Assembly: GCA_963932905.1 (NCBI GenBank)
Contig: CAWVRN010000029.1
Location: forward strand, 1 to 62,640
DNA length: 62,640 nucleotides
Direction of reading: 5' to 3'
DNA from: an uncultured Bdellovibrio sp.
GTDB taxonomy: Bacteria > Bdellovibrionota > Bdellovibrionia > Bdellovibrionales > Bdellovibrionaceae
Positions 622-62,179 of the stretch are shown one piece after another. Each line of letters opens with the position of its first letter. The stretch's first letter is position 1. Both the position numbers and the translations under genes were made by a program. The notes beneath the pieces were generated by a model. The model had not been told where the DNA came from and ran no database searches. It saw only the letters and a list, made by a program, of their open reading frames with translations.

Positions 622-703
622 ACGCGCAGCCGTTAGCCTTTAAAACAGTTGAATTCCCTGATTGGGCCTTGATATAAACATCTGATCAATTAGGGGAGAA
701 TCA

Positions 704-6749: not shown

Positions 6750-9700
6750 ATGAAAAAATATCTAATTTATGGCCTTGGGCTGATCCTTGTATTTACAATT
6801 TCGTGTACGCGTTCAGCGAGTGATAAAAACGGCGCGCAGGTAGTTATTCAAATACCTACTAGCAGTCAACTTCAGGCAAAACTGCAAAATATTTCTGCTA
6901 ACAATTACGTAAATAAATTAATTCAAAAAAGTTCTTTGCAAACAATGAGCAGCGATCCCGCGCCAACTGGATTTGAGGGGACACGCCCGCTGAATTGTTT
7001 CGCTGTCGCGCTTTCTGGTCCAATCGAAGCGTTACGGCGTAATCATTGCTATAAGAAAGCAACAACCCTTGGTGCGCCACTTTCATTTTATGTGGGTCCT
7101 TTAAGTAAAATTGTGGGAACTGGCGCGCAAATCGTAATGGAGGATTTAGAGAGTGGGCCTGGGCGGATATTTCGATTGGTTGGTTTTCACTCTAAAAGTG
7201 GTGATTGCCCAGCATTAGAGACCAGTCACGATAATTACGGTAATGGGTATTTGATGGCTGAAACGGGTGCCATTAATTTGGAAGCTGGTAAAACAATGAC
7301 TATCCAAATGAATATGACATTTGATACCGATAAGTTTATCGATCGTTGTGATGGTCCCGATTTTCCGGAAGGCAATGGCGGTGGCAGTGGTGATAATCCA
7401 GCCACTCGTTTAGTTATCAAAAAAGATTTCTTTCCTGTTAATCAAATTGTCGAAAGCACATGTCAGGCTGTCGATATCGTAGGACAAAATGCTTATAGCG
7501 ATTATGCCAGTGTAAAATCAGCGACGACGTTTAAGTTGTTGGGCAACGGATCCGCATTAACGATGTATAGTACATATGAAAATTGTACTACAAATAGTTC
7601 CGTTAGCGAGCTGACCTTTATAGCAGGCCAAGATCGTAAACAAGTTTGGTTTATGGCGCCCTCGAAAAATGCAGCGACTTATTTAGATCTGGATATTTCA
7701 TTTGGATCGAATCCTGATGCTTTATCGAGTGGGGCGTTGGTCGGAGTCCAAGTTCGTAGCTATGACGAAAAATCATTTGAAATCTATGCGCCCCAGCGAA
7801 TTCTTGCTGAAGGCTGTTATGAAATCAAGGTCGATGCAAAGTATATGAATAATTCGATTTATTCCGCTCACTATTCACCTGCATCCATTAGCGTGACTAA
7901 CGGCAGTTTATATTCTGACTCTTCGTGCACAACACAAACTACCAGCGTGAATTTTTCAACGGGAAAATCCTCTTCACCCATTTATTTAAAAACAGCGGCT
8001 TCTTTTGGAACTAAAGTTTCAATCGTCGCTAGTTATAGCGGATTCATTGACGGTAGGAAAACGATTGAGGTAGGTTCTGGCAGTCAAACGCTGGCTAATA
8101 TTGAAGTTCGTCATAGCAATCAAACTATCATCGGCGAGTGTGTAAATGCATCCGTTACGTTTCTGAATGAAAACTACACAGCTATTGTTATACCCGCGGC
8201 TGTTATTCTCAATTTTTCCGGCGGCGGTTCAACGGCCAATTTCTTTTCCGATCAATATTGTGGGGCGAACAGTAATGGTGTTCAAGTCGCCTCGGCGGGA
8301 GTTTCGTCGACAGAATTTTCTTTTTCACCGTTGACCTATGGCATTCAGTCGATTCAGCTAACAACGACGGGTGTATCGGCCTACAGCATGAATTATTTTG
8401 CAAACTACCGGTATAAATTGTCTGTTTATGCGAACTCATACTCGATGGCTCCTGGTACGTGTGTTGGAGCCACAATTTACACCCAATATCAAAATGGATA
8501 TTCGGCGTATTTAAATACGGCAACAGCGGTATCAGTGACAACTCCGTTTCCTATGTATTCTGATTCTAGTTGTAAAAACAGTCTTGGAAACGTAGCGACG
8601 ATCCCTGCAAATTCAAATATGGTCGCCGTGTTTTTTCAGCCTGATAATCTGACTCCGATCGCAATTGATGGGAACATTGTTTTTCAAGCGCCAGGACTAT
8701 CGCAAACAAACATTTCATTTAATGTGGGTTCGCGACCGTCATTAGCAACCGTTTGGGGACTATCAGCGCATAAAGTAGCGTCGAATTTTCCACTTGATTT
8801 AAAATTATTAATGATCCCGTTCACGGGGTTACCTCCATTTGTAATCACCAAAACTGCGGGCACAGGGGTGCTCAATGGTGATATCTATTTTCCAGTAGTT
8901 GCAGAAACCGCAGCGTTCACTGTGGCCGATAATTCAGGAGTATCATTTAATTTTACAGCACAAACAGTGCAAAGTGTATTCGCTAACAATTTCACCGCAC
9001 AGCAATTGCCGGCGGGATACAGCTTTACCCGCGCTAGTGGCGGTAAGTATTACGATGCCTCCGGTACGTTGGTGGATGCCTCCGCCGGAACGCCTCGGTT
9101 TGATCGAAATCCTGATCCATCCACGTCCTACAGTTCGTTAGGGTTATTGATCGAGCCTGCTAGCACGAATTTGGTGGTATACAGCAGCTATATGTCAGCT
9201 GGTAACTGGAATAAGTCGTTTTCTAATATTGCATCGTCGTCCGTGATTCAGGATCCCGCAGGGAACAGTTATAGCGATGTGATTGCTTGGAACAATCCGA
9301 CATATACAAATATGGCTTATGCATCATCACAGGCGGTGGCGCCATCCCCTGGTTCTGTATATTCAGGTTCTGTTTTCGTGAAAAAAGATACGGCCCGTTT
9401 TGTGGGAATGAAAATTCATGAATACGGCGGCAGTTACGGATATTCCGGTGTTGTTCTGGATTTAGACACGGGAAATGTCGTGGGGATGTACGATCCTTGG
9501 AGTGGGGATGTGAGTTCAAATTTTGGTGTACAGAAATTGAAAAATGGCTGGTTTAGAATTTGGACTAACTATATGGCAAAGGGTGGTTCCGGTATTCAAC
9601 TGTATTTGTATCCTGTTTATCATGGAGGATCTACGCTCTCGCCCAATCGAGACAATACAGTGAGCGGACAGACTTATTTCTGGGGTGCGCAGCTAGAAAT

Positions 9701-10259
9701 TGGCGAGTCAGCGACTTCGTATATAGCGACGTCAGGTGCGGCCGCTTCCCGAAATGCTGACGTATTCTCTGTCGATATTAGTTCAGGAGCGCCCTCTTAT
9801 GCGTCAGCGACTGAAAGTTCCATTCGTTTTGAATACTCACGTCCTGAAGGTAGTCGACCCAACGCGGGAGCTTTGTTTGCTGTTTGTGGTTCAAATTGTG
9901 CGTCGGAACGATTTGGTGCCAATGTTTACTATGGCGATGCCGTAGGTTTTGAAATGCTGTCGGTAGGCGGTTCAGAGTACTACACATTGTATTCAAGCGG
10001 TTTTGCGGCTGTTAAGGGAATTAACAAAATCGCAATGAGTTTTTCGAGCTCTTCTTCGTATGGTTTTAACTGGGCACTGAATTCATCGGCCGGTACAAAT
10101 GCAGCTACTTATATTACAAATCATCCCACGCTTTCGGGTGGAAGGATGTATTTTGGTAGCGACTACAATGGACTGAACCAATCCACAATTCACTTGCGCA
10201 GCTATGAGTTGTGGATTGATAAAATTTCTGGTCCTGGTTTAAAGACAATGACAAAATAG
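6750..10259 (+). CDS. Large surface lipoprotein: Cys-containing beta-rich repeats plus a C-terminal phage fibre/spike-like lectin domain
   Basis: Lipobox-like VFTISC; four (Y/F)SDxxC-type modules; C-terminal FTRAS...PRFD...GLLIEPASTNL...WGAQLE...TSYIAT...RNAD signature. Confidence 0.7.
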   Translation: MKKYLIYGLGLILVFTISCTRSASDKNGAQVVIQIPTSSQLQAKLQNISANNYVNKLIQKSSLQTMSSDPAPTGFEGTRPLNCFAVALSGPIEALRRNHCYKKATTLGAPLSFYVGPLSKIVGTGAQIVMEDLESGPGRIFRLVGFHSKSGDCPALETSHDNYGNGYLMAETGAINLEAGKTMTIQMNMTFDTDKFIDRCDGPDFPEGNGGGSGDNPATRLVIKKDFFPVNQIVESTCQAVDIVGQNAYSDYASVKSATTFKLLGNGSALTMYSTYENCTTNSSVSELTFIAGQDRKQVWFMAPSKNAATYLDLDISFGSNPDALSSGALVGVQVRSYDEKSFEIYAPQRILAEGCYEIKVDAKYMNNSIYSAHYSPASISVTNGSLYSDSSCTTQTTSVNFSTGKSSSPIYLKTAASFGTKVSIVASYSGFIDGRKTIEVGSGSQTLANIEVRHSNQTIIGECVNASVTFLNENYTAIVIPAAVILNFSGGGSTANFFSDQYCGANSNGVQVASAGVSSTEFSFSPLTYGIQSIQLTTTGVSAYSMNYFANYRYKLSVYANSYSMAPGTCVGATIYTQYQNGYSAYLNTATAVSVTTPFPMYSDSSCKNSLGNVATIPANSNMVAVFFQPDNLTPIAIDGNIVFQAPGLSQTNISFNVGSRPSLATVWGLSAHKVASNFPLDLKLLMIPFTGLPPFVITKTAGTGVLNGDIYFPVVAETAAFTVADNSGVSFNFTAQTVQSVFANNFTAQQLPAGYSFTRASGGKYYDASGTLVDASAGTPRFDRNPDPSTSYSSLGLLIEPASTNLVVYSSYMSAGNWNKSFSNIASSSVIQDPAGNSYSDVIAWNNPTYTNMAYASSQAVAPSPGSVYSGSVFVKKDTARFVGMKIHEYGGSYGYSGVVLDLDTGNVVGMYDPWSGDVSSNFGVQKLKNGWFRIWTNYMAKGGSGIQLYLYPVYHGGSTLSPNRDNTVSGQTYFWGAQLEIGESATSYIATSGAAASRNADVFSVDISSGAPSYASATESSIRFEYSRPEGSRPNAGALFAVCGSNCASERFGANVYYGDAVGFEMLSVGGSEYYTLYSSGFAAVKGINKIAMSFSSSSSYGFNWALNSSAGTNAATYITNHPTLSGGRMYFGSDYNGLNQSTIHLRSYELWIDKISGPGLKTMTK

Positions 10260-14125: not shown

Positions 14126-14569
14126 ATGACCCCTCAAGAATTACAAGATTTGTTGAATCAAGAAATTCCGATCACAAAATCGATGGGCCTTGATGTAATC
14201 AAGTCGACCTCCGATGAAGTGATTTTGAAATTTAAACTGGATGCAAATAAGAATCACAAAGGGACGGCGTTTGGTGGCAGTCAGTATTCTGCTTGTGCGC
14301 TGTCTTGTTATGGATTGTTTCTGGTGGGTTTGCGTGATCGTGGCTATACGACGAACAATATCGTGATTTCTGATGGGAAGATTAGTTACAACGCGCCTGT
14401 GGGGGAAAACTTTTTGGCTAAGGCATCGTGGTCTTTGGAATCTCAGACCGAGTTTTTTGATAAGCTTTCTCGTAAGCAAAAGGCTAAGGTGACTTTGAGA
14501 GCTCAAGTGGAATCTAAATCTAAGGTCTGCACGGAGTTCGAAGGGGACTTTGTCGCTATCCTCGAATAA
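14126..14569 (+). CDS. Hotdog-fold thioesterase (YiiD C-terminal-like)
   Basis: IPITKSMG, NKNHKGTAFGGS. Confidence 0.85.
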   Translation: MTPQELQDLLNQEIPITKSMGLDVIKSTSDEVILKFKLDANKNHKGTAFGGSQYSACALSCYGLFLVGLRDRGYTTNNIVISDGKISYNAPVGENFLAKASWSLESQTEFFDKLSRKQKAKVTLRAQVESKSKVCTEFEGDFVAILE

Positions 14570-14582
14570 TTGAAGACCTTAG

Positions 14583-14821
14583 TTTAAAAGTTGAGAGTTC
14601 TTTTGTGTTTCCTTCGCTAGGGCCAGGGGTGCGAGCGGGGTCTTCCTTTTTTTGAGATTTCTTTTTTAAGGTATATGGAAAAGCCTCGGCAGTCCTCGCC
14701 GGCGCTGAACGCCTGTCTGCGGAACTCATTTTTCCATATACCTTAAAAAAGAAATCTCAAAAAAAGGAAGACCGATCTTGAATTGGCGCTACGGAAATAC
14801 AAAGGGACACTCGACTTTTAA
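14583..14821 (+). repeat. Nested palindromic element A (~240 bp)
   Basis: Perfect 44-bp inverted arms 14639-14682/14730-14773 around a 47-nt loop; imperfect outer stem ~14583-14612/14793-14821. Confidence 0.9.
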
Positions 14822-14866
14822 AATTATCCAAGCGGAGACGCCTTAGTCATAATTTTTTTAATGATC

Positions 14867-14953
14867 AAAAAGAAAAACCCCGCTGGGGGAAGCAGGGTTT
14901 GTTGGGGGGAGAAGGGCCGTCTTTGGGGGAAAGACTTTGTGGCCGCTTCTGTC
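14867..14953 (-). ncRNA. Candidate ~87-nt sRNA with three C-rich tracts and an intrinsic terminator
   Basis: Sigma54 motif upstream; stem GUCUUU-CCCCC-AAAGAC, linker CCCCCC, terminator AAACCCUGCU-UCCCCC-AGCGGGGUUU then U-run; no ORF. Confidence 0.65.
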
Positions 14954-14963
14954 TTTATAGTAG

Positions 14964-14979
14964 TGCAACGACCAAGCCA
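14964..14979 (-). promoter_or_regulatory. Putative sigma54 promoter
   Basis: Minus strand TGGCTTGGTCGTTGCA: GG-N10-GC with TGGC and TTGC. Confidence 0.65.
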
Positions 14980-15116
14980 TAACGGTGTGGGTTATTTCAT
15001 TTATAAATCTAATTAAACTACTCAGGCCAAGAAAGTTACTTTTCGCGCACGACCATCACTGCGAAGTTTACGTACCAAAAAAAGATGTCTCGAAATGAAA
15101 TAAAAAAAGGGCGAAG

Positions 15117-15158
15117 CTAGGCGCTCGCAGCTAGGCGCCCCCGACTAGGCGCCCCCGA
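15117..15158 (+). repeat. 14-bp tandem repeat, 3 units
   Basis: CTAGGCGCTCGCAG, CTAGGCGCCCCCGA, CTAGGCGCCCCCGA. Confidence 0.85.
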
Positions 15159-15167
15159 CGCGGGTAA

Positions 15168-15401
15168 AAAATTGAGAATTAAGAAAATCTGTTTTTCAAA
15201 GATTTCAAATCAAGCTCGGTCTTCCTATTCTGGATTCGTGAATTAAAGGCTTGAAAAAATGAGTTCCACAGCCGGCGCAAAGCGCACGGCGAGGATTGCC
15301 GAGGCTTTTTCAAGCCTTTAATTCACGAATCCAGAATAGGAAGACCTCCATCTCGACCTGAAGCCGTCTTTGGAAAATAGATCTTCTTAACTCTCAATTT
15401 T
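15168..15401 (-). repeat. Nested palindromic element B, same family as A, opposite orientation
   Basis: Perfect 41-bp arms 15218-15258/15306-15346 around a 47-nt loop whose reverse complement closely matches loop A; ~36-bp imperfect outer stem. Confidence 0.9.
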
Positions 15402-24396: not shown

Positions 24397-27300
24397 TTAT
24401 ATTGGGGTTGGTAGCCCCAGATGTGTCGTTGGTGTTTTTTCGATTAGGGTAACGACAACATGATGTTCACGCTTATCATTCACCAATAAAATTTCTGATT
24501 CAGATAAAAGGCGTCCCTCTTGTTCTATTTTCACAGCGCCCTTACGACATCCATTGGGATTTCTAACCTCGATAGTGTATTGGGTGTCTTTGTGGCGGTA
24601 TTTTATCTCAAATGCACGCCACGTTTCTGGAATGCATGGATTGATTTTTAGTTTATCACCACGTAGTTGAAATCCTAAAATAGATTCTAAAGCGGCACGG
24701 TAATACCATGACGACGAACCTGTGTACCAACTCCATCCACCGCGGCCCACATAGGGTGGCTCGCCATAAACATCGCCGGCAAGAACGTACGGTTCGATTT
24801 TGTATTCCAGAGTATCATTCTGCGCTTGTGAATGTAGAATAGGATTTATCATGTTGTAGAACTCCATCGCTTTGTCACCGTGGCCGAGTTCCGCGAATGC
24901 CATGATTACCCAAATCGCCGCATGCGTATACTGACCGCCATTTTCACGAACGCCGGGAATGTAGCCTTTGATGTAACCGGGGTTTTTTGCTCCTTTATCA
25001 AATGGAGGTGTAAGCAGAAGTATTAACTTAGAATCTTTTTTTACCAAATATTTTTCTACATTCTGCATGGCTTGTTGAATTCTTTTTTCGTCACCTGCTT
25101 TTGAAATGACCGCCCACGATTGAGAAATTGAATCAATTTTACATTCATCACTTTGCTGCGATCCTACCGGCGTGCCATCATCAAAATAGGCGCGGCGATA
25201 CCATTCACCATCCCAACCACTTGATTCTAAGGATTGTTTTAACTGTTCCATATGAGCGCGATATTTGGTTTGATCGATCGTTGGCAAGTGAGGCATGAAA
25301 TCATCCAGCACTTTATATAAGAACCAACCTAACCAAACGCTTTCACCTTGACCATGAACTCCGATGCGATTCATTCCATCGTTCCAATCACCCGTACCAA
25401 TCAAGGGCAATCCATGCTGTCCAACAGGGAGAGAGCGATTGATAGCGCGGATACAGTGGTCAAGGATACTCGCTGATTCTTGCGATACCGATGGCTGCGT
25501 GTAGGAATCCTCTTGTCCTGGATTCAGAAGTGGAGCTTCGATAAAATGAGTTTTCTCGTCCAAGATCGATTGATCCCCTGTGGTTTGGATATAGAAGCTG
25601 ACGACCAGAGGCAGCCACAATAAATCATCTGACATCGTGGTGCGGATACCGCGACCTGTGGGAGGATGCCACCAGTGTTGAACATCGCCTTCTTTAAATT
25701 GGCGTTCGGAGGCGCGAATAATTTGTTCGCGTGCTAGTTTTGGATCGGAATACACAAAGGCCATGCAATCTTGCAATTGGTCGCGAAAACCATACGCACC
25801 GCCAGATTGATAGAATGCCGTTCGCGCCCAGTAGCGACAGGACAAAGTTTGGTACAGTAACCATCGATTCATTAAAATATTAAGCGAGGGTTCCGGAGTT
25901 TTTATCTGCACAGTTGAAATCAGATCGTCCCAGTATTTCACTGCGTCCAAATAGGCTTTCTTAACTTTATCAATATTTTCATACCGCTGTATCAACTGCC
26001 GCGCTAGCTCGTGCGATTCTGTTTGTCCAAGCAAAATCGAAACTTCGAATTCTTGCCCAGGGGCTATTTCCACAGAGGATTGCAGAACGGCACACGGGTC
26101 TTGTCCCGTGCCGTATTTTTTAGATAGTCCCTGACGTTTCAGGGCGATCGGGTCCGCATAGTTGCCGTTACGACCAATAAATTCTTTGCGACTGCACGTG
26201 AATGTAATATCAGTTGTACTGATATCGGCAAATGCAACTTTATTCGCAAATTCATTGTCATGTGGGTTTTTTGCGAAGATGGCGCCACTGTCGGGATCGA
26301 AGTCACAAATCAAATACGCGGCTGTTTTCTCACGGCGGGTTCCTAAGACCCACTCTGTGTAGCTAGTAATTGATATTTTTCGGTTACGTGCCGATGTGTT
26401 TTTTATCTTCAATAGTGAAATCTTCACGGTGTCGTCGATGGGAACAAACATCGTTAACCTGTGTTCGAATTCATGACTGTTATGTTCAAACACAGAATAG
26501 CCTTGGCCATGACGAATGATGTAGGAATTTTCACTTCGGATGGGAAGAGGCGTGGGAGTCCACACTTCACCCGTCTCGTCATCGCGCAGGTAAATGATCT
26601 CGCCCGGTGGATCTATGATCGGGTCGTTTGACCATGGCGTCAGGCGATTCGCTTGGCTGTTGGCATTCCAAGTAAAACCAGAGCCGGCTTCACTGATTTG
26701 GAAACCAAATCCACGTCGGTTACCGATAACATTGATCCACGGTGCTGGAGTCCAATGATCTTGCTTTAATATCGTCACGTACTCACGGCCATCACGCGTG
26801 AAGCCCCCGTAACCGTTGAAAAATTCTAAATCCATTTTTGGAGGCGGTGTAGATCGTAGATTCTTTTTATCGGGAATTTTGTCTGCGTATTTAAAGTTCG
26901 CTAATGGTGGGTATTTTTCTTCGGTTGGTCGACGATTAATCTGTTCTTCTAGAGGCTCGCTGGCGACCAGTGAAACTCGCGAAACCGCTAGGATATGGGC
27001 CAAGTCTTTCTCTGGAGTAATGTTCTTGCGCAAGACAAAAATGCCGCCATTTTTATTCAACCAACCTTGACTGCCTGTCGAACGTATCTGCTGATGAAGT
27101 TCGTCTTGAACATCTTGAAAATAGTTGGATTCATGTTCATTGATGATGACGAAATCATAGACAAGACCTTTAAGTCGCAAGTATTCATGGCAACGCAAAA
27201 GTTTTCTAACAACGGCCATATCCTTTTGATCGTCGATACGGACCGCTACGATAGGCAAGTCGCCGCCAATGCCACTTGGCCACAGGCTGGATTGCTGATT

Positions 27301-30300
27301 GGTGTTGGCTACGCGTTGATGAGTGGGCGGACGTAGTGACGGTTCCGAGTACAGGATTCTTTCAGCGAGTCGCTGATACAAATAAGCCGTTTGTGAATCA
27401 ATATTAAGATGACGAAGATCTACTTGGGCTTGAGTCCAAGCACGCTTAGACTCACGATCAAATGCGTGGATATCGTGATAGCGATCGGCAAGTTCTAAGG
27501 CTTTTTCTTTGGATTGAGTTAGACCCGTGGTGAATGCGACTTGAACTTTCCCGTGCTCTGGAAGTTCAACTTGAATACGCAATGACAAAATAGGATCGAT
27601 GGCAGCACCAGTTTCGTTTGATAGATTTCGATCTTCTAATAAGGCCAAAGCTTTGCTAATCGAACGTCCTCGGCCAATAAAGTTGTTTCTATCTGTTTCA
27701 TATTGAATATTTGACATAATGTTGCCGTCAGCAACGACGGCATGCAAACTCCAATTTTCAACTTCGTGAATGGAACGTTTACGTCGTTTTGCCAGCAGCG
27801 CATTTTTCGACGCCAGATATTCTGTTTGTATAAATAATTTGCTAAATGCCTGGTGGTCTAAATCATTGTTTGGCGGATTCAGGGTTGGCTCTAGATAGCT
27901 CGTCAATTCTATCGTTTTTGCCTTACCTGAATGATTCGTTAACGTTATATGACGAATTTCAACGTTGTCCTCTGGGGCAACAATAATTTGCGTGTGTGTA
28001 GATACATCGCCGTCACGACGTCGAAATTCCGCTTTGTCTTCGCTGAACGTGACTTGATATTCTTCTGGCAGACTGGGCAATGGCTGGAAGCCGGATGACC
28101 AAAGGACTTTGTCTGATTTGTTTTTAATAAATATGAAACTTCCTAAGTGATCGCGAGTGGCATCTTCACGCCAGCGAGTAACACCCACATCGCCGCATTT
28201 TGAATAACCACCACCTGCAGTTGATAACATAACAGAATAAGTGCGATTAGATAAAAGATGAGTACGTGGTGTAATTCCGTCTGGGTTGTTGTAATTTCTA
28301 ATCAGTGAACTGTTGCTCGGTTGACGATGAACTTCGATTTCAATTTCTGCGGCTTTCGGTGGAACTGGATTTACTCCGTGAGGAATGCGTTCTTGCAGAA
28401 GTAACTGAGTGGCGCGGATGCGAGGATCGGCATGGAAACGTTCACGTATGATAGATTGGTTTAACACGTTATTGATCGCAACTAGACTCATGCCTTGATG
28501 ATGGGCCATGAACGATCTAATGACGGCAAATTTTTCGTTTTGTGGCAGACGTTCACGAGTGTAGTCGACCGCTTCATAGAAACCGTGTGCGGATAGTAGG
28601 TTATCTTTAATCAACCTCTTCATGTTTTCTATTGCGGCATGAGGTTTTACCATGGCTGCTAAAACAGTCGAGTACGGGGAAATTACCAAATCATGACTTA
28701 AACCGCGTTTTAAACCAAAGCCGGGTACACCGAATGGTCCGTACTGATAATTCATTTGTAAATCACGAGCGTTATAACCCGCTTCGGAAACACCCCATGG
28801 GATACGGTGTTCGTTACCGTATGCGATTTGTCCTTCTACAACGGTGTGAACAGTTTCGTTCAGTAGAGTGTTTTTGTAATCGTGCATGACCAAGTTTGGC
28901 ATCAAATATTCAAACATGGATGCCGTCCATGAAATCAAGGCGCGACCTCCCGCCGCTGGTACAAGTTGGCGGCCGAGTCTGAACCAATGTTCTTGAGGTA
29001 CATCACCTTTGGCAATGGCAACGAAGCTAGCTAAGCGCGCCTCAGACCCCAGTAGATCGTATGAACTGTGGTCAAAACGATTTTCACTGACATTGTATCC
29101 GATCGAAAATACTTCGCGTTTCTTGTCCAGCAAGAAATTGAAGTTCATTTCGTTAAATAATTTATTTATCTGCTCGGCGCAAGACTGCGCTTGGTTAAAA
29201 AATTCTTCTAGCGACGATTGCGCGTGTAGAACTTGTTCTAACAATTTGCGAAGAGAATCTATGATAGCCGTTGGGGCGCGTTTTTCGGCGCTGGTTGCTT
29301 TGATAAGTTCGTTTAGGTCCTCTACGGCGGATCGGTAATTAGTTTGTAAGTGAAATAGGTCAGATTCTGTTCGTACTGAATGGATCAGTTGTTTCCATTT
29401 CAAACCGAGCAAGGGCATAATATCACTGAGTTGTTTTTCCATCGGAACATATATATCTTGAGCCCATGGCGATTTCTCTAGAATTTCGATTTGTTGCACT
29501 GTAATTTGATCAAGTCCTAAGTTCATCCACATCAAAATTTCTTCGGTGGAATTATTGCTGAAATTTAAAATGTAATTTTTGGCTTTTTCAAAAGATTGAC
29601 GAAGTGATTTCAGGTGGATGATCCAATGACTAAAATCATGCGTCGACGGTTCACACAGGCGTTGCTTGCAGTCACGGAAAAGCGCCAGCAAAGGGCGAGC
29701 CGCATCTTCTTGTGGAATTAACTCATGTTCGACAATTCTGATTATATCACCTAATCCAAGTAGAAATTTAGAATCAACGATTTTTGATTTCGGCACGTCT
29801 AAACAGGTTTGGCGTGCCACGACTAGGTAGCCTGCCAAGTTTCCGCTATCGACAGTAGAAACATACTTAGGGTACAGCGGGGTCAACGTCTTAGTGTCAT
29901 ACCAGTTAAGTAGGTGCCCTTCGTGACGCTCTAATTTAACCATTGATTGCAACGTTTGAGTCAGGCGGTTTAGCATTTGGGTCGTGTTTATAAATCCGAA
30001 ATCGCGGGCGGAAGAAATCGTCATTAAATACAAGCCAATATTGGTAGGAGACGTACGATGTGCTGTTACCACGCTTGGAATCAATTGATGGTTGTCGGGC
30101 GGTAGCCAGTTATCGTCTTGGCTGACAAAGTCTTCAAAATAGTGCCACGTGCGACGAGCAATTTGCCTTAGTAAATTTTGATCTTCGGAAGGGATAGGTT
30201 TTTGCTCGCGCGAAATTTGACGACTAATGAGTTTTGCTGCAAAAGGATAGGACATCCAGACGGCAATAGTTAGTGCCCATTCTGTTGACGCCACTTCATT

Positions 30301-33108
30301 TTGGCTGGCAAACAAGACAAGTATGCTCGTCAACACCAATTCCGTCGGCAGACTAGTTTGCCATAGTGGCTTTTTTGTGCCGCTGATTTGTTTTTCCATC
30401 TGCGCCGCTGTTGACCATTCTAATAAACGAGAGTGAGAAAAGTAACGACGGTAAAAAACGCGGCAAATCGCATCCACATGAATAACCGCTTGATGAGCCA
30501 GGAACCACAGGTGAAAGAGTATTTGGTAGATGTGAATTTTAATATTACCTAAAAAACCATCCCAGCGTCCTTGGCTTTTGCCAAACATTAACTTCAACGT
30601 ATTCATCCCACTTTGGATCACAACAGGGAGAGCAATCAGCGCTATGACTAGACTAAACCAAAACGCTGGTGTTCCAGGCAAGGCAATCAGCGAAAGCGTC
30701 AACAATAAAAACGTGGATGGGGACACTAGGCTTCGGCGCAAATTATCAAATATTTTCCAACGTGAAATTAACGGTGTTCCTGATTTTAAAAACCAAGGCA
30801 TCGCTTGCCAATCACCACGGGTCCAGCGATGTTGGCGTGTGAAAAATGTATGATAGGATTGCGGGTAATCGTCGATAAGTTCGATGTCGCTTAAAAGAGC
30901 AGTGCGCGAAAAAATGCCTTCTAATAAATCATGACTCAGAATCGTATTCTCTGGGAAACGGTCTTTCAGTGCCGCTTCAAACGCGTCTACATCATAGAGT
31001 CCTTTGCCAGTGTAGGAACCTTCATAAAACAAATCTTGATAAACGTCTGATACAGCCGTGGTGTAAGGATCAATACCCACATAGCCAGAGAAAATTTTAG
31101 CAAACAGGGATAGTGATGAACTTTCTAACGAAACTCCAATACGTGGTTGTAGAATGCCATAGCCTTCAGTGATACGGCCTGTTGCTTTGTCAAATACGGC
31201 GCGATTTAGCGGATGCAGGGCCGTTCCGATTAATTTAGCTGCGGTATCGCGGGGCATACGCGTATCTGCGTCGACGGTGATAACGTAGCGAATGTTTCTA
31301 AGAAAACTTGAAGGCGCTGTGCTGACACTAAAACTGGTATCGGTTTTACCGCGTAGGAGAGAATTGAATTCGTGGATTTTTCCGCGCTTTCTTTCCCAGC
31401 CCATCCAACAATTTTCAGAATCATTCCATTGACGGCGACGATGGAAAATATAGAAATGGGGATTGCCATTTTCAAGTACATATTTTTGATTCAATAAATC
31501 AATGCCGCGTAGAGCGAAATTTAGGATATTCTCATCTTCATCTGTGGTCTCGCTGTCAGCATCGGTATAGTCGGTAACTAGCGCAAACGATATTTGGGGA
31601 TCAGAATTGCCCAAGTAATGAATTTCCATTTTCTCTAGCAATTCAGCAACGGTCTTGCGGCCCGCTAACATACAAGGAATGATGACCATCGTTTTTGCTT
31701 CAGGAGGAATGCCATTAGATAGATCTAATTTTGGTAATCGTTTGGGATGAAGGATGTGAGTTAAAATAAAATTCGTCAGTCCTAACGCAAGCTCACTGGC
31801 TGGAATCAATGTTAAAAAAGCGATACCTATCAAGGCCCAGATGCCGACACCATAGTCGCGACTGTAATTTAGTGGCACCATCAGAATCAGAATTAGGAAA
31901 ATGCTAATCAATGAAAAGTAAGTTAGATTTTTATTTGCCTGTAAAGTGGTTGATAGCCAGTTTTGTTTGTATCCCAGACTCTGACTGAGTAGATGAAAGC
32001 CGTCACCGATTACATAGTACCCAACATGAGAGGTTTTTTCGTTGGTGCCTTTTGCCGCCCTTTTAATGATGTCATCAGCAATAGCTATTTCGGAGGTTTG
32101 TGTTTTTTTGCTAAGTTTTTCGATGATATGTCGATATTGATCTCGAGTTTGGAAATCCAGTTGTCGGTAGATGGGATCTTGTTCCAATATACGATCTACA
32201 CGACTAAGGCTTTCAATAAATTCGCGCCAGTTTAAGCTCGACAGCAATCGCATGCTGGTGATTATGTTTGCAACGGTAACTTGGTTGGCGACTTGACGTT
32301 GTAAAGTTGCCCGGACAGTGGCTTCTGCCGAAGAATCTTTTTTGTTTAAATAGGTTTCTAAAACTTCAAGTGCAGGCCAGATTTCTGGTTCTTGATCGCG
32401 TAGTCGTTTTGCCAGTTGAGCCATGTAAACAATATCGTCGTGTTCTGATTGTTCAAGTTGCGATTTTAGTTCCGCAATCAGTATTTTAAATTTTTCTTTG
32501 TCGACTACGTTGTCGAATAATTGATCGGCAAATCGATTTGCTAAACTGCGTTTATCGTGATCGACAACGGTGCGAACAGCAAGGCGGCGCAGATTTTCTA
32601 CCAGCACCAATCGCAGTGTGATCGGTAGCGCCCACAGTTCACCAATCGTTAACGAACATGTTTTTTGATATGATGAAAAGAAGCGACGAATTGTTTCTGG
32701 TTCTAGTTCGCTGTCAGTATGTGCAATCAGCGCCAGCGCCAAAGCATAAATGCGCGGGTAACCGGTAAGGTCACCCACAGCTAATTTGGGCAATTCCTTA
32801 TAATAAGATGGAGGTAAATCCTCTTGTATTTCACGCAGCTGATCTTCAACAATATGAAAATTGTCGGTCAGCCATTCTGCGGCCGGAGGAATAGATTCTT
32901 TACGCTGCATAGATTCTGTCAATGAACGATAGGCTTCGACTAGTCGTTTACCGTTTTCCCGCATACGGGGCAGCAGAGGTTGAAATACGGAGGGATCTCC
33001 GCTGACTTTTAGCTCACCAGCTAAATAAGAAGCGTACTCTTCTAGTCTCTCGACGCTGTAGAGTTCACCACGGATTGCATTTTCTAACTGTTGTTCCGTG
33101 ATTTTCAA
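24397..33108 (-). CDS. ndvB: Cyclic beta-1,2-glucan synthase (Cgs/NdvB/ChvB; GT84 plus GH94 domains)
   Basis: 2903 aa; AEWLTDNF, GWERKRGK, LSHDLLEG, RQHRW, RTSPTNIG, YDLLGSEARL, QSGGAYGFRDQLQD, GDWNDGMN, RENGGQYTHAA. Confidence 0.95.
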   Translation of the reverse strand: MKITEQQLENAIRGELYSVERLEEYASYLAGELKVSGDPSVFQPLLPRMRENGKRLVEAYRSLTESMQRKESIPPAAEWLTDNFHIVEDQLREIQEDLPPSYYKELPKLAVGDLTGYPRIYALALALIAHTDSELEPETIRRFFSSYQKTCSLTIGELWALPITLRLVLVENLRRLAVRTVVDHDKRSLANRFADQLFDNVVDKEKFKILIAELKSQLEQSEHDDIVYMAQLAKRLRDQEPEIWPALEVLETYLNKKDSSAEATVRATLQRQVANQVTVANIITSMRLLSSLNWREFIESLSRVDRILEQDPIYRQLDFQTRDQYRHIIEKLSKKTQTSEIAIADDIIKRAAKGTNEKTSHVGYYVIGDGFHLLSQSLGYKQNWLSTTLQANKNLTYFSLISIFLILILMVPLNYSRDYGVGIWALIGIAFLTLIPASELALGLTNFILTHILHPKRLPKLDLSNGIPPEAKTMVIIPCMLAGRKTVAELLEKMEIHYLGNSDPQISFALVTDYTDADSETTDEDENILNFALRGIDLLNQKYVLENGNPHFYIFHRRRQWNDSENCWMGWERKRGKIHEFNSLLRGKTDTSFSVSTAPSSFLRNIRYVITVDADTRMPRDTAAKLIGTALHPLNRAVFDKATGRITEGYGILQPRIGVSLESSSLSLFAKIFSGYVGIDPYTTAVSDVYQDLFYEGSYTGKGLYDVDAFEAALKDRFPENTILSHDLLEGIFSRTALLSDIELIDDYPQSYHTFFTRQHRWTRGDWQAMPWFLKSGTPLISRWKIFDNLRRSLVSPSTFLLLTLSLIALPGTPAFWFSLVIALIALPVVIQSGMNTLKLMFGKSQGRWDGFLGNIKIHIYQILFHLWFLAHQAVIHVDAICRVFYRRYFSHSRLLEWSTAAQMEKQISGTKKPLWQTSLPTELVLTSILVLFASQNEVASTEWALTIAVWMSYPFAAKLISRQISREQKPIPSEDQNLLRQIARRTWHYFEDFVSQDDNWLPPDNHQLIPSVVTAHRTSPTNIGLYLMTISSARDFGFINTTQMLNRLTQTLQSMVKLERHEGHLLNWYDTKTLTPLYPKYVSTVDSGNLAGYLVVARQTCLDVPKSKIVDSKFLLGLGDIIRIVEHELIPQEDAARPLLALFRDCKQRLCEPSTHDFSHWIIHLKSLRQSFEKAKNYILNFSNNSTEEILMWMNLGLDQITVQQIEILEKSPWAQDIYVPMEKQLSDIMPLLGLKWKQLIHSVRTESDLFHLQTNYRSAVEDLNELIKATSAEKRAPTAIIDSLRKLLEQVLHAQSSLEEFFNQAQSCAEQINKLFNEMNFNFLLDKKREVFSIGYNVSENRFDHSSYDLLGSEARLASFVAIAKGDVPQEHWFRLGRQLVPAAGGRALISWTASMFEYLMPNLVMHDYKNTLLNETVHTVVEGQIAYGNEHRIPWGVSEAGYNARDLQMNYQYGPFGVPGFGLKRGLSHDLVISPYSTVLAAMVKPHAAIENMKRLIKDNLLSAHGFYEAVDYTRERLPQNEKFAVIRSFMAHHQGMSLVAINNVLNQSIIRERFHADPRIRATQLLLQERIPHGVNPVPPKAAEIEIEVHRQPSNSSLIRNYNNPDGITPRTHLLSNRTYSVMLSTAGGGYSKCGDVGVTRWREDATRDHLGSFIFIKNKSDKVLWSSGFQPLPSLPEEYQVTFSEDKAEFRRRDGDVSTHTQIIVAPEDNVEIRHITLTNHSGKAKTIELTSYLEPTLNPPNNDLDHQAFSKLFIQTEYLASKNALLAKRRKRSIHEVENWSLHAVVADGNIMSNIQYETDRNNFIGRGRSISKALALLEDRNLSNETGAAIDPILSLRIQVELPEHGKVQVAFTTGLTQSKEKALELADRYHDIHAFDRESKRAWTQAQVDLRHLNIDSQTAYLYQRLAERILYSEPSLRPPTHQRVANTNQQSSLWPSGIGGDLPIVAVRIDDQKDMAVVRKLLRCHEYLRLKGLVYDFVIINEHESNYFQDVQDELHQQIRSTGSQGWLNKNGGIFVLRKNITPEKDLAHILAVSRVSLVASEPLEEQINRRPTEEKYPPLANFKYADKIPDKKNLRSTPPPKMDLEFFNGYGGFTRDGREYVTILKQDHWTPAPWINVIGNRRGFGFQISEAGSGFTWNANSQANRLTPWSNDPIIDPPGEIIYLRDDETGEVWTPTPLPIRSENSYIIRHGQGYSVFEHNSHEFEHRLTMFVPIDDTVKISLLKIKNTSARNRKISITSYTEWVLGTRREKTAAYLICDFDPDSGAIFAKNPHDNEFANKVAFADISTTDITFTCSRKEFIGRNGNYADPIALKRQGLSKKYGTGQDPCAVLQSSVEIAPGQEFEVSILLGQTESHELARQLIQRYENIDKVKKAYLDAVKYWDDLISTVQIKTPEPSLNILMNRWLLYQTLSCRYWARTAFYQSGGAYGFRDQLQDCMAFVYSDPKLAREQIIRASERQFKEGDVQHWWHPPTGRGIRTTMSDDLLWLPLVVSFYIQTTGDQSILDEKTHFIEAPLLNPGQEDSYTQPSVSQESASILDHCIRAINRSLPVGQHGLPLIGTGDWNDGMNRIGVHGQGESVWLGWFLYKVLDDFMPHLPTIDQTKYRAHMEQLKQSLESSGWDGEWYRRAYFDDGTPVGSQQSDECKIDSISQSWAVISKAGDEKRIQQAMQNVEKYLVKKDSKLILLLTPPFDKGAKNPGYIKGYIPGVRENGGQYTHAAIWVIMAFAELGHGDKAMEFYNMINPILHSQAQNDTLEYKIEPYVLAGDVYGEPPYVGRGGWSWYTGSSSWYYRAALESILGFQLRGDKLKINPCIPETWRAFEIKYRHKDTQYTIEVRNPNGCRKGAVKIEQEGRLLSESEILLVNDKREHHVVVTLIEKTPTTHLGLPTPI

Positions 33109-34503: not shown

Positions 34504-34799
34504 ACTCGATCCTTTTTAAATATTACGGACAGCAACTACCATCATATTTATTTTCTGATCGACGGCAATAGGCTTCTGATGCTGCTGATCTAAATGCGGA
34601 TGTGAATACGCAAGATTTCATACGCTTCTTCTGGAATGTTTAAATTTTGTTTGTTTTGTAAGCAAAATAGACAAAATGATAGAGGAGGTGATAGTTGCAA
34701 ACATTTTCCCACTTGGAAAAAATTTTTTATGGCACTGTGTTTTTGTTTGCGGAACGAAGCAACTCGACGGACAGTTATAGACGTCTCGGGGGGGATTCA

Positions 34800-61602: not shown

Positions 61603-62179
61603 AGTCCCCCCGCTAAGATTCGTAATATCGATAGCATTAATAGGATGTGCTGTAAACAAATGATGTGGGATTGACTTTCGGCATGGTTAAACAACTTAGA
61701 ACCATTAAAAAACTACAAGCTTGAATAATAATCATGTGTATAGTGTGAGGTCTCCACAGTTTGTTTTTATAGGCTATACAGCCATTGGCTTGATGTTTAA
61801 GATTCAAATACTTTTTACATAATTACTTAGGTTGTCCGTTTATTTGAAATTTGTGTAAAACCTTATAGCGGGCGAACCCTATTTGCCAACCAACTGATGG
61901 TTTAACCACCTAAAACTCATACCACCATGTTGATGGGCTTTGGCAGCATTGGTTGAGGCTTAGTTTGGATACAGAAATGCAAAGCCATTTTGGAATTTCA
62001 AATGGATAAACTATTTCAAAATTAAAAATATGTTCAGTCGGGCAGACCTTTTTAGGTCGGTAGCCTCACACTACTGAAGCGTGGCGTTCCGCTGGAGTCT
62101 TCTGGTCTTCTTGTTTAAATTTGCCAATGGTGCATCTTGGGATATTTACAATGGGGCTAAGCTAAATTATGCTATCAAG

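Follow-up and report, generated by a model that had tools for sequence, protein, structure and literature searches.

The minus strand of the DNA analysed here (62,640 nucleotides, hereafter the window) very probably carries a real, uncatalogued small RNA gene of sigma54 type, whose predicted 87-nt product holds three unpaired runs of C. The reading preferred for this poly-C RNA, with a probability of about two in three, is that of a C-seed translational repressor of mRNAs with G-run Shine-Dalgarno (SD) sites. The poly-C family is new as a conserved, uncatalogued non-coding gene of Bdellovibrio-like predators; the C-seed design of an sRNA is already known elsewhere.

Locus, sequence and predicted fold

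The features of the locus are as follows.

14964..14979, minus strand: sigma54-type -24/-12 promoter TGG-N8-TTGCA; sequence TGGCTTGGTCGTTGCA, read 14979-14964
14867..14953, minus strand: predicted 87-nt sRNA of the three-C-run class, from fold, covariation, and homology limited to promoter and RNA
14910..14950, minus strand: 5' stem-loop presenting C-run 1, from fold and covariation; shortened or absent in other classes
14925..14929, minus strand: C-run 1, a C5 loop and predicted seed; four C's invariant in the alignment, unpaired probability at least about 0.9
14904..14909, minus strand: C-run 2, a C6 single-stranded linker and predicted seed; unpaired, and found in every one of the 16 aligned copies, though not always at the same length
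14875..14900, minus strand: intrinsic terminator hairpin whose C5 loop is C-run 3 (14885-14889); U-tail to 14867
15070..15103, no strand assigned: two imperfect palindromes in tandem (consensus RYGTCTCA-N3-TGAGACRY), which may serve as an upstream activator site ~120-150 nt before +1

A minus-strand -24/-12 promoter followed by a stem with a C5 loop, an unpaired C6 linker and a terminator whose loop is rich in C had been described in the original prediction, and sequence and fold are as it described them. Transcription of the poly-C RNA and its start are predicted from sequence: sigma54 geometry would place +1 at G14953, with GG at -25/-24 and GC at -13/-12. The fold is stable on the minus strand (z = -4.3, with 0/200 shuffles as stable) compared with the plus strand (z = -1.6), and three C5 runs spaced 8-22 nt apart occur once in the window and in 0/100 shuffles. 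Taken by itself, the promoter pattern is no more frequent in the window than chance would have it (4 matches vs 2.9 expected), so the weight of the promoter comes from its conservation. Terminator-like hairpins with a loop of C4 or longer number only 3 of 431 in the source genome (G000), and two of these three are the 87-nt element and its paralogue. A search of the window for tRNA and tmRNA found none. In one sequencing run of uncertain type, a single 239-nt contig of depth 2.3 spans 14717-14939, which carries no weight either way.

Conservation of the three-C-run class

The original prediction had staked itself on conservation of the promoter and loops in relatives, and both are conserved in 9/9 same-genus genomes. 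A 211-nt DNA query matched all nine, with 1-3 copies per genome, and 0/27 other genera of the family; the second three-run copy in the source genome is on contig C15. The DNA alignments of the same-genus matches are confined to promoter and RNA, while the neighbouring genes change. TGG-N8-TTGCA is invariant in 16/16 aligned copies, with a variable 8-nt spacer.

An alignment of the RNA alone (16 homologues) has 96.8% of its cells paired, and 10/26 pairs change on both sides; 0/500 shuffles reach this, a result that is not a probability, since the sequences are related. Pairing drops to 34-61% in slid controls. Within the terminator stem 6/11 pairs change on both sides and 99.4% of cells are paired; in the 5' stem, 4/9 outer pairs change on both sides and 5/6 inner pairs never vary. 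The C-runs and promoter boxes are thus fixed while the stems covary, with C-runs that vary in length and flanks that are not fixed. This comparative evidence, a conserved promoter together with covarying stems, bears out the earlier proposal of a stand-alone sigma54-type sRNA gene with three unpaired C-runs.

A covariance model (R1) built from the RNA alone, without the promoter, recovered further members in other genera, and YGG-N10-GC stands at the right distance upstream of 8/9 of its best non-training loci. Below ~34 bits its matches are mostly ordinary terminators (11/11 loci, L038-L048, have no promoter), and its tally of 82/151 genomes is therefore not used as a distribution. Searching 185,579 species genomes for the exact pattern produced 38 matches. 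Fifteen contain all three C-runs and the terminator, all from genomes titled Bdellovibrio, Pseudobdellovibrio, (Pseudo)bdellovibrionaceae or Bdellovibrionales; the remaining 23 are without the rest of the anatomy. Eight metagenomic contigs were also found, 6 of them scoring as full members, some being probably the same sequences as genome copies. The three-run classes are patchy, with 19/151 family genomes matched at E<1e-8 (many of which had supplied training sequences) and further members in families f2, f5, f6 and f8, where the sequence was inspected at five loci; it was also inspected at L141-L143.

Of 33 three-run loci, 16 are followed by an ORF on the opposite strand and 14 by one on the same strand, with none downstream in 3. 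The varied neighbours and the frequency of opposite ORFs therefore favour a stand-alone gene. One locus (L017, G009:C52:11243-11296) is a truncated copy, with the promoter and the 5' half to C-run 1 followed by unrelated sequence; it is either a pseudogene or an assembly artefact.

Core form and shorter classes

Shorter classes came to light once the promoter was built into a covariance model. One, of ~70 nt, has a small first hairpin; another, of ~55 nt, lacks it; and in the core form, which the source genome carries on contig C8, a C6 run at the 5' end is followed by a single hairpin, whose long loop is C-rich, and by a U-tail. The classes have in common the promoter, the C-runs and, stepwise, a CCAGG/CCTGG stem. 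Between classes the stems differ completely, and the C-runs persist and stay unpaired. Because they form such a stepwise series (not a tree), the classes probably share a common descent.

The core form is widespread. In its alignment 99.6% of cells are paired and 3/10 pairs change on both sides. The core model, trained on 23 sequences, matched 137/151 family genomes (113/118 of high quality) and 20/23 other genomes of the same order, and 0/127 outside the order. All 32 genomes sampled from genus g9, which is probably Bdellovibrio, have the core form.

The position of the core form gives some room to a cis-acting element, in which the sigma54 promoter would drive a leader or attenuator of a downstream gene, or the hairpin would terminate the upstream ABC-transporter operon. 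In most cases an Amidase_3 gene on the same strand follows the core form at 40-110 nt, and some three-run copies also precede same-strand genes. In genus g1, at L159 (G000:C8:129761-129854, minus strand) and its same-genus orthologues, the core U-tail is displaced ~4 nt from the stem, unlike in other genera; here the core RNA may read through into the amidase gene, g1 being the genus with the extra three-run copies. In g9, however, the amidase gene is divergent and upstream of the core form. The next gene downstream of the 87-nt element in the window is convergent (a YiiD-like thioesterase, ending at 14569), as are many of the downstream ORFs counted above in relation to their three-run copies, and the ABC-transporter operon upstream has a terminator-like site of its own at 15128-15111. 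A cis-acting role is accordingly quite improbable.

Amplified copies point the same way. One genome (G324) holds four tandem units of ~420 bp, each with an upstream palindrome, a promoter and a ~55-nt C-rich RNA (L306, G324:C1:1674522-1675863, minus strand), with no ORF between units evident in the sequence inspected, and G370 holds two tandem units of palindrome, promoter and RNA. The whole transcription unit has been amplified, which therefore fits a dose-dependent trans-acting RNA.

Least probable of all, at a few chances in a hundred, is that the element is a selfish repeat, a small ORF or a type I antitoxin, or that its motifs came together by chance. Location and copy number are indeed variable, the element sits between repeat hairpins, and short ORFs of 40 aa (minus strand) and 51 aa (plus strand) overlap it. 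The single-copy core form, however, is kept across the order; changes in C-run length would shift any reading frame; and the 40-aa ORF starts inside the promoter. Neighbours differ between loci with no shared small ORF evident in a listing that runs from 80 aa upwards, and viral contigs gave 0 matches to the one exact core pattern searched.

Other C-rich elements were also noticed. L045, L157, L053 and L063 are modules of a C-linker and C-loop terminator directly after stop codons, in which no promoter was seen; they are possible 3'-UTR-derived relatives, or a possible source, of the poly-C family. At G000:C1 ~275330-275420 (minus strand), L204, L067 and L068, two hairpins have CCCCUCC loops, which are truly anti-SD-like, with a terminator at the end. 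In both G000 and G017 they stand at one and the same position ahead of murA; the G017 copy follows a 131-aa ORF, and the G000 copy has a sigma54-like promoter upstream. This element could belong to a second family of C-rich RNAs, as an sRNA derived from a 3'-UTR.

Comparison with known small RNAs

Rfam 15 at the gathering threshold gave 0 matches in the window, and 13 homologue loci gave only a tRNA; E-value scans of the element and the core paralogue yielded only sub-threshold matches. The literature on Bdellovibrio sRNAs, sigma54 and C-rich RNAs, within a coverage that stopped short of most subscription papers, the intergenic-RNA tables of PMC3818213 and Table S2 part 2 of PMC3627812, contained no description of the poly-C family.

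Cuckoo RNAs (alpha-r14) are tandem hairpins with CCUCCUCCC loops. The three-run class has pure C-run loops instead, and no Rfam match to cuckoo RNAs was obtained. These RNAs and Pxr had been offered earlier as parallels; LhrC and sX13 are closer in anatomy and would be the nearest analogues.

LhrC1-5 of Listeria monocytogenes (RF00616) resemble the poly-C RNA in three unpaired C-rich sites (first loop, linker, terminator loop) and in several copies; the sites are redundant and the RNAs Hfq-independent (PMC4132741). They are 111-114 nt long with CUCCC/UCCC sites, whereas the RNA described here has 87 nt, pure C5-6 runs, a sigma54-type promoter and a host in a different phylum. The LhrC covariance model gave 0 matches at E<=1 in the source genome, and its best score in 5 genomes was 25 bits against a gathering threshold of 110. 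The Xanthomonas RNA sX13 has three C-rich loops, is associated with G-rich motifs near start codons and is Hfq-independent (PMC3771888). Its three loops are apical and its gene is at the polA locus, in contrast to the loop-linker-loop order here, and no Rfam match to it covers the element at E<=5.

Further systems share some traits. The C-rich loops of 6C bind mRNAs without a chaperone, with dnaB as a target (PMC6486639); the likeness of this actinobacterial 6C/B11 RNA (RF01066) extends to dnaB, which keeps a G4 site here. Its model reached 18.6 bits against a gathering threshold of 47 (E 2.9) on the core paralogue, with no match on the window copy. RepG and CJnc190 of Helicobacter and Campylobacter direct a C/U-rich loop against G-rich ribosome-binding sites in organisms without Hfq (PMC8687705), and the paralogues CjNC1/CjNC4 are predicted to target sigma54-dependent genes (PMC4626219). 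CjNC1/4 are sigma28-driven and CJnc190 is processed by RNase III, and no Rfam match to RepG, CJnc190 or CjNC was found here.

Pxr of Myxococcus xanthus has a predicted sigma54 promoter and enhancer, depends on an essential loop C, works without Hfq and gates a life-cycle transition (PMC5684412). The likeness of Pxr (RF01812) lies in the sigma54 promoter, the absence of Hfq and the sigma54 life-cycle parallel. Its model gave 0 matches at E<=1 in 5 genomes; pxr adjoins pxrR/pxrK, whereas the neighbours here vary, with no Sigma54_activat domain among 10 window and 20 selected neighbour proteins. Among published B. bacteriovorus sRNAs (APsRNA1-7, merRNA), 0/8 sequences in Fig. S1 of PMC3627812 have the poly-C anatomy by eye. 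The hit-locus sRNA of Bdellovibrio bacteriovorus, at 261 nt (PMC3818213) against 87 nt here, is set apart by published description rather than by sequence.

Predicted targets: G-run ribosome-binding sites

The three C tracts had been called anti-SD-like. The tracts are present, but as pure C-runs and not as the anti-SD CCUCC, and would thus prefer GGGG(G) sites to GGAGG. The 16S end in a relative is the canonical CCUCC; G-run sites are therefore a minority dialect. All four G-run ribosome sites named in advance exist in the window (693-700, 34788-34794, ~47868, and 61606-61611 on the minus strand), and the gene behind the first encodes a Dcp-like M3 peptidase that falls below the NCBIfam equivalog cut-off.

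Target statistics were obtained with in-house heuristics for gene calls, starts and signal peptides. Among 980 unambiguous starts, G5 is at the SD position in 24, GGAGG in 63 and CCCCC in 0. G5 precedes 150 and G4 precedes 238 of the 4138 called genes; this makes 3.6% with G5 and 9.4% with G4 or longer, compared with a G motif at the ribosome-binding site of ~5% of genes in the host of sX13 (PMC3771888).

Secreted proteins, foreseen earlier as the target class, are weakly favoured. Heuristic signal peptides were found in 75/150 G5 genes vs 100/304 GGAGG genes (p 5e-4), with a similar bias in operon-leading genes and a non-significant one in internal genes. Against this, the kept G-run sites described below include housekeeping and respiratory genes, and G-run sites are also common in lineages where the RNA was not found. 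G5 was also found in 13/66 genes with a sigma54 promoter vs 106/2538 others; against GGAGG alone this bias is marginal (p 0.045-0.075, uncorrected). Six of 20 called activator genes have a G5 site, the six representing about three paralogue groups. The G5 gene next to csrA is presumably fliW, named from its N-terminal sequence.

Between G000 and G017, orthologues kept the G-run type in 22/47 pairs vs 20/191, in a set of 725 pairs from 2.0 of the 3.7 Mb of G017 (58% median identity); this is equally a retention of GGAG-type sites and does not distinguish targeting by the sRNA from selection on the strength of initiation. The kept sites include rpoD, dnaB (a G4 site in both genomes compared), a DksA-like gene, coxB, the gene for cytochrome oxidase subunit III, ccoS and a TolQ/ExbB-like gene. 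The ratio of G5 to GGAGG starts, worked out by hand and with overlapping matches that inflate G5, was 0.25-2.04 (median 0.60) in 21 carriers; examples from phylum members that gave no match to the core RNA ranged from 0.07 to 1.75. Across the phylum, G5-type starts thus show no separation by presence of the core RNA; members where it was not found could have other C-rich RNAs, one candidate being L144.

When sites were ranked by pairing energy, 52/60 of the best lay in G4/G5-SD genes, a ranking that is circular by design and that scanned only windows of -40..+15. No long or compensatory complementarity to any target was seen in the target analysis. Hfq (PF17209) and ProQ (PF04352) have no match in G000, one genome that is 98.6% complete; it does encode a KhpA/B domain and CsrA. 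Because the orthologue comparison is ambiguous and G5 is about as common where no core RNA was found, pairing with G-run sites rests mainly on anatomy and precedent, and the target evidence is suggestive. For sX13 itself, a G motif did not guarantee regulation (PMC3771888).

The same data leave a modest place for another role, in which the RNA is real and sigma54-driven but titrates a protein such as the KH-domain KhpA/B or Rho, as a poly(C) decoy, and does not pair with mRNA. Repeated identical unpaired motifs and amplified copies are typical of protein sponges such as CsrB and RsmZ. The poly-C RNA has both; its C-runs vary in length between unfixed flanks, a KhpA/B domain is encoded, and the frequency of G-run SDs does not track the RNA. 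CsrA is not the expected ligand, since the loops have no GGA. Against a decoy stand the studied RNAs of like anatomy (LhrC, sX13, 6C and CJnc190), which act on G-rich mRNA sites, and the fact that some genes have G-run ribosome sites at precisely the SD position. The decoy is rather unlikely on balance.

Slightly less probable still is pairing with G-rich RNA mainly for ends other than blocking ribosome sites, with the poly-C RNA serving as an sRNA sponge, a decay trigger, or a cover on G-rich enhancers in leaders or coding regions. According to PMC3771888, sX13 acts partly through G-motifs outside the SD; a few of the top-ranked predicted sites here are likewise outside it, and support for SD targeting is weak. 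The predominance of G4/G5-SD genes among the best predicted sites speaks for the SD, with the circularity and narrow windows already stated. Repression through G-run SD sites remains the preferred reading.

Transcriptional input

Several traits expected of a sigma54-dependent sRNA of the Qrr/Pxr/GlmY kind are found: a conserved GG-N10-GC at -24/-12, and rpoN (sigma54) and activators in the genome, where 23 activator-domain matches were counted. Most of 17 upstream regions of the three-run class contain the palindrome RYGTCTCA-N3-TGAGACRY at a nearly fixed distance. A position-anchored search gave a leave-one-out score of 202 vs a maximum of 27 in 30 shuffles, with 4/17 sequences below zero; an unanchored Gibbs search for an upstream motif was barely above shuffles (189 vs 147-166). 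In the window the first site is at 15070-15088 and the second at 15085-15103, the degenerate pattern used for the latter being not above chance in the window.

The palindrome is not confined to these RNA genes. Of its 100 strongest sites in the genome, 60 fall between genes, though genes cover 88% of G000. It precedes genes that resemble, by their N-termini, those for type IV pilin, Flp pilin and flagellins (examples are G000 C5:97555, C1:412329 and C2:21102), and signal-peptide proteins behind it number 44/85 vs 721/2519. Because most genes behind it have no detected sigma54 promoter, and half-sites similar to it occur in published attack-phase promoters (PMC3627812, Table S2 part 1), this putative site may belong to a global regulator rather than act as an enhancer. 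The core class has a different upstream motif, GACAATTGTC...TGTC-N9-GACA, which suggests separate inputs for the classes; it also favours secreted-protein genes (74/126 vs 691/2478). The palindrome was also considered as a mark of the G5-SD regulon, as in a feed-forward loop, but this found no support (G5:GGAGG 8:10 vs 111:204, p 0.45).

Proposed mechanism and significance

Sigma54 polymerase, activated through the upstream palindrome by some regulator, would transcribe the 87-nt RNA from a stand-alone, often multi-copy gene of the Bdellovibrionales. By pairing of its three unpaired C-runs with GGGG(G) ribosome-binding sites, and with no need of Hfq, the RNA would repress the translation of many mRNAs. 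The predicted target pool, ~150 (G5) to 390 (G4 or longer) genes, leans towards secreted and sigma54-driven genes and includes several sigma54 activators and growth genes (rpoD, dnaB); feedback through the activators is possible. Beyond the core RNA, the extra three-run copies would supply a second input and raise the dose.

A bolder extension is speculative and, taken as a whole, doubtful. It holds that sigma54-driven poly-C RNAs of the Bdellovibrionales, each class under a separate activator site and adjustable through copy number, read a second SD 'dialect', silence the G-run genes together while sparing GGAGG genes, and gate the switch between attack phase and intra-prey growth. If true, the silenced set would comprise secreted enzymes, sigma54 activators, rpoD, dnaB and respiratory genes. 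In PMC3627812, the attack/growth switch of Bdellovibrio is described as unknown, and most of the sRNAs it reports are confined to a single species. With its obvious seed and a predicted target list, an RNA driven by sigma54 and present across the order would be a precise genetic handle on Bdellovibrio, and the family is valuable as one that is order-wide and testable in a laboratory predator. It would combine redundant C seeds as in LhrC with multi-copy sigma54 control as in Qrr and Pxr, in a lineage without Hfq.

Other features of the window

The original prediction placed the RNA between two hairpin elements. Both flanking hairpins are present, the position of the RNA between them is incidental, and they are a separate repeat family. 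This family of ~130-nt repeats includes 14639-14773 and 15218-15346 of the window and has at least 11 copies, with others on contigs C5, C9, C13, C17, C19 and C36 of G000. In each copy a conserved ~55-nt core lies between two long arms, which are perfect complements of each other but change in sequence from one copy to the next. Five copies end in GGTCTTCC...GGAAGACC; the repeats are REP/REPIN-like, and the pair in the window is oppositely oriented. Short imperfect tandem repeats (CTAGGCGCCCCCGA-like) with a minus-strand terminator-like site lie at 15106-15165, a single copy in the genome. Further away, the window contains a secreted protein of 1169 aa at 6750-10259 (plus strand), for which a Pfam search gave no match, and an ORF of 2903 aa at 24397-33108 (minus strand).
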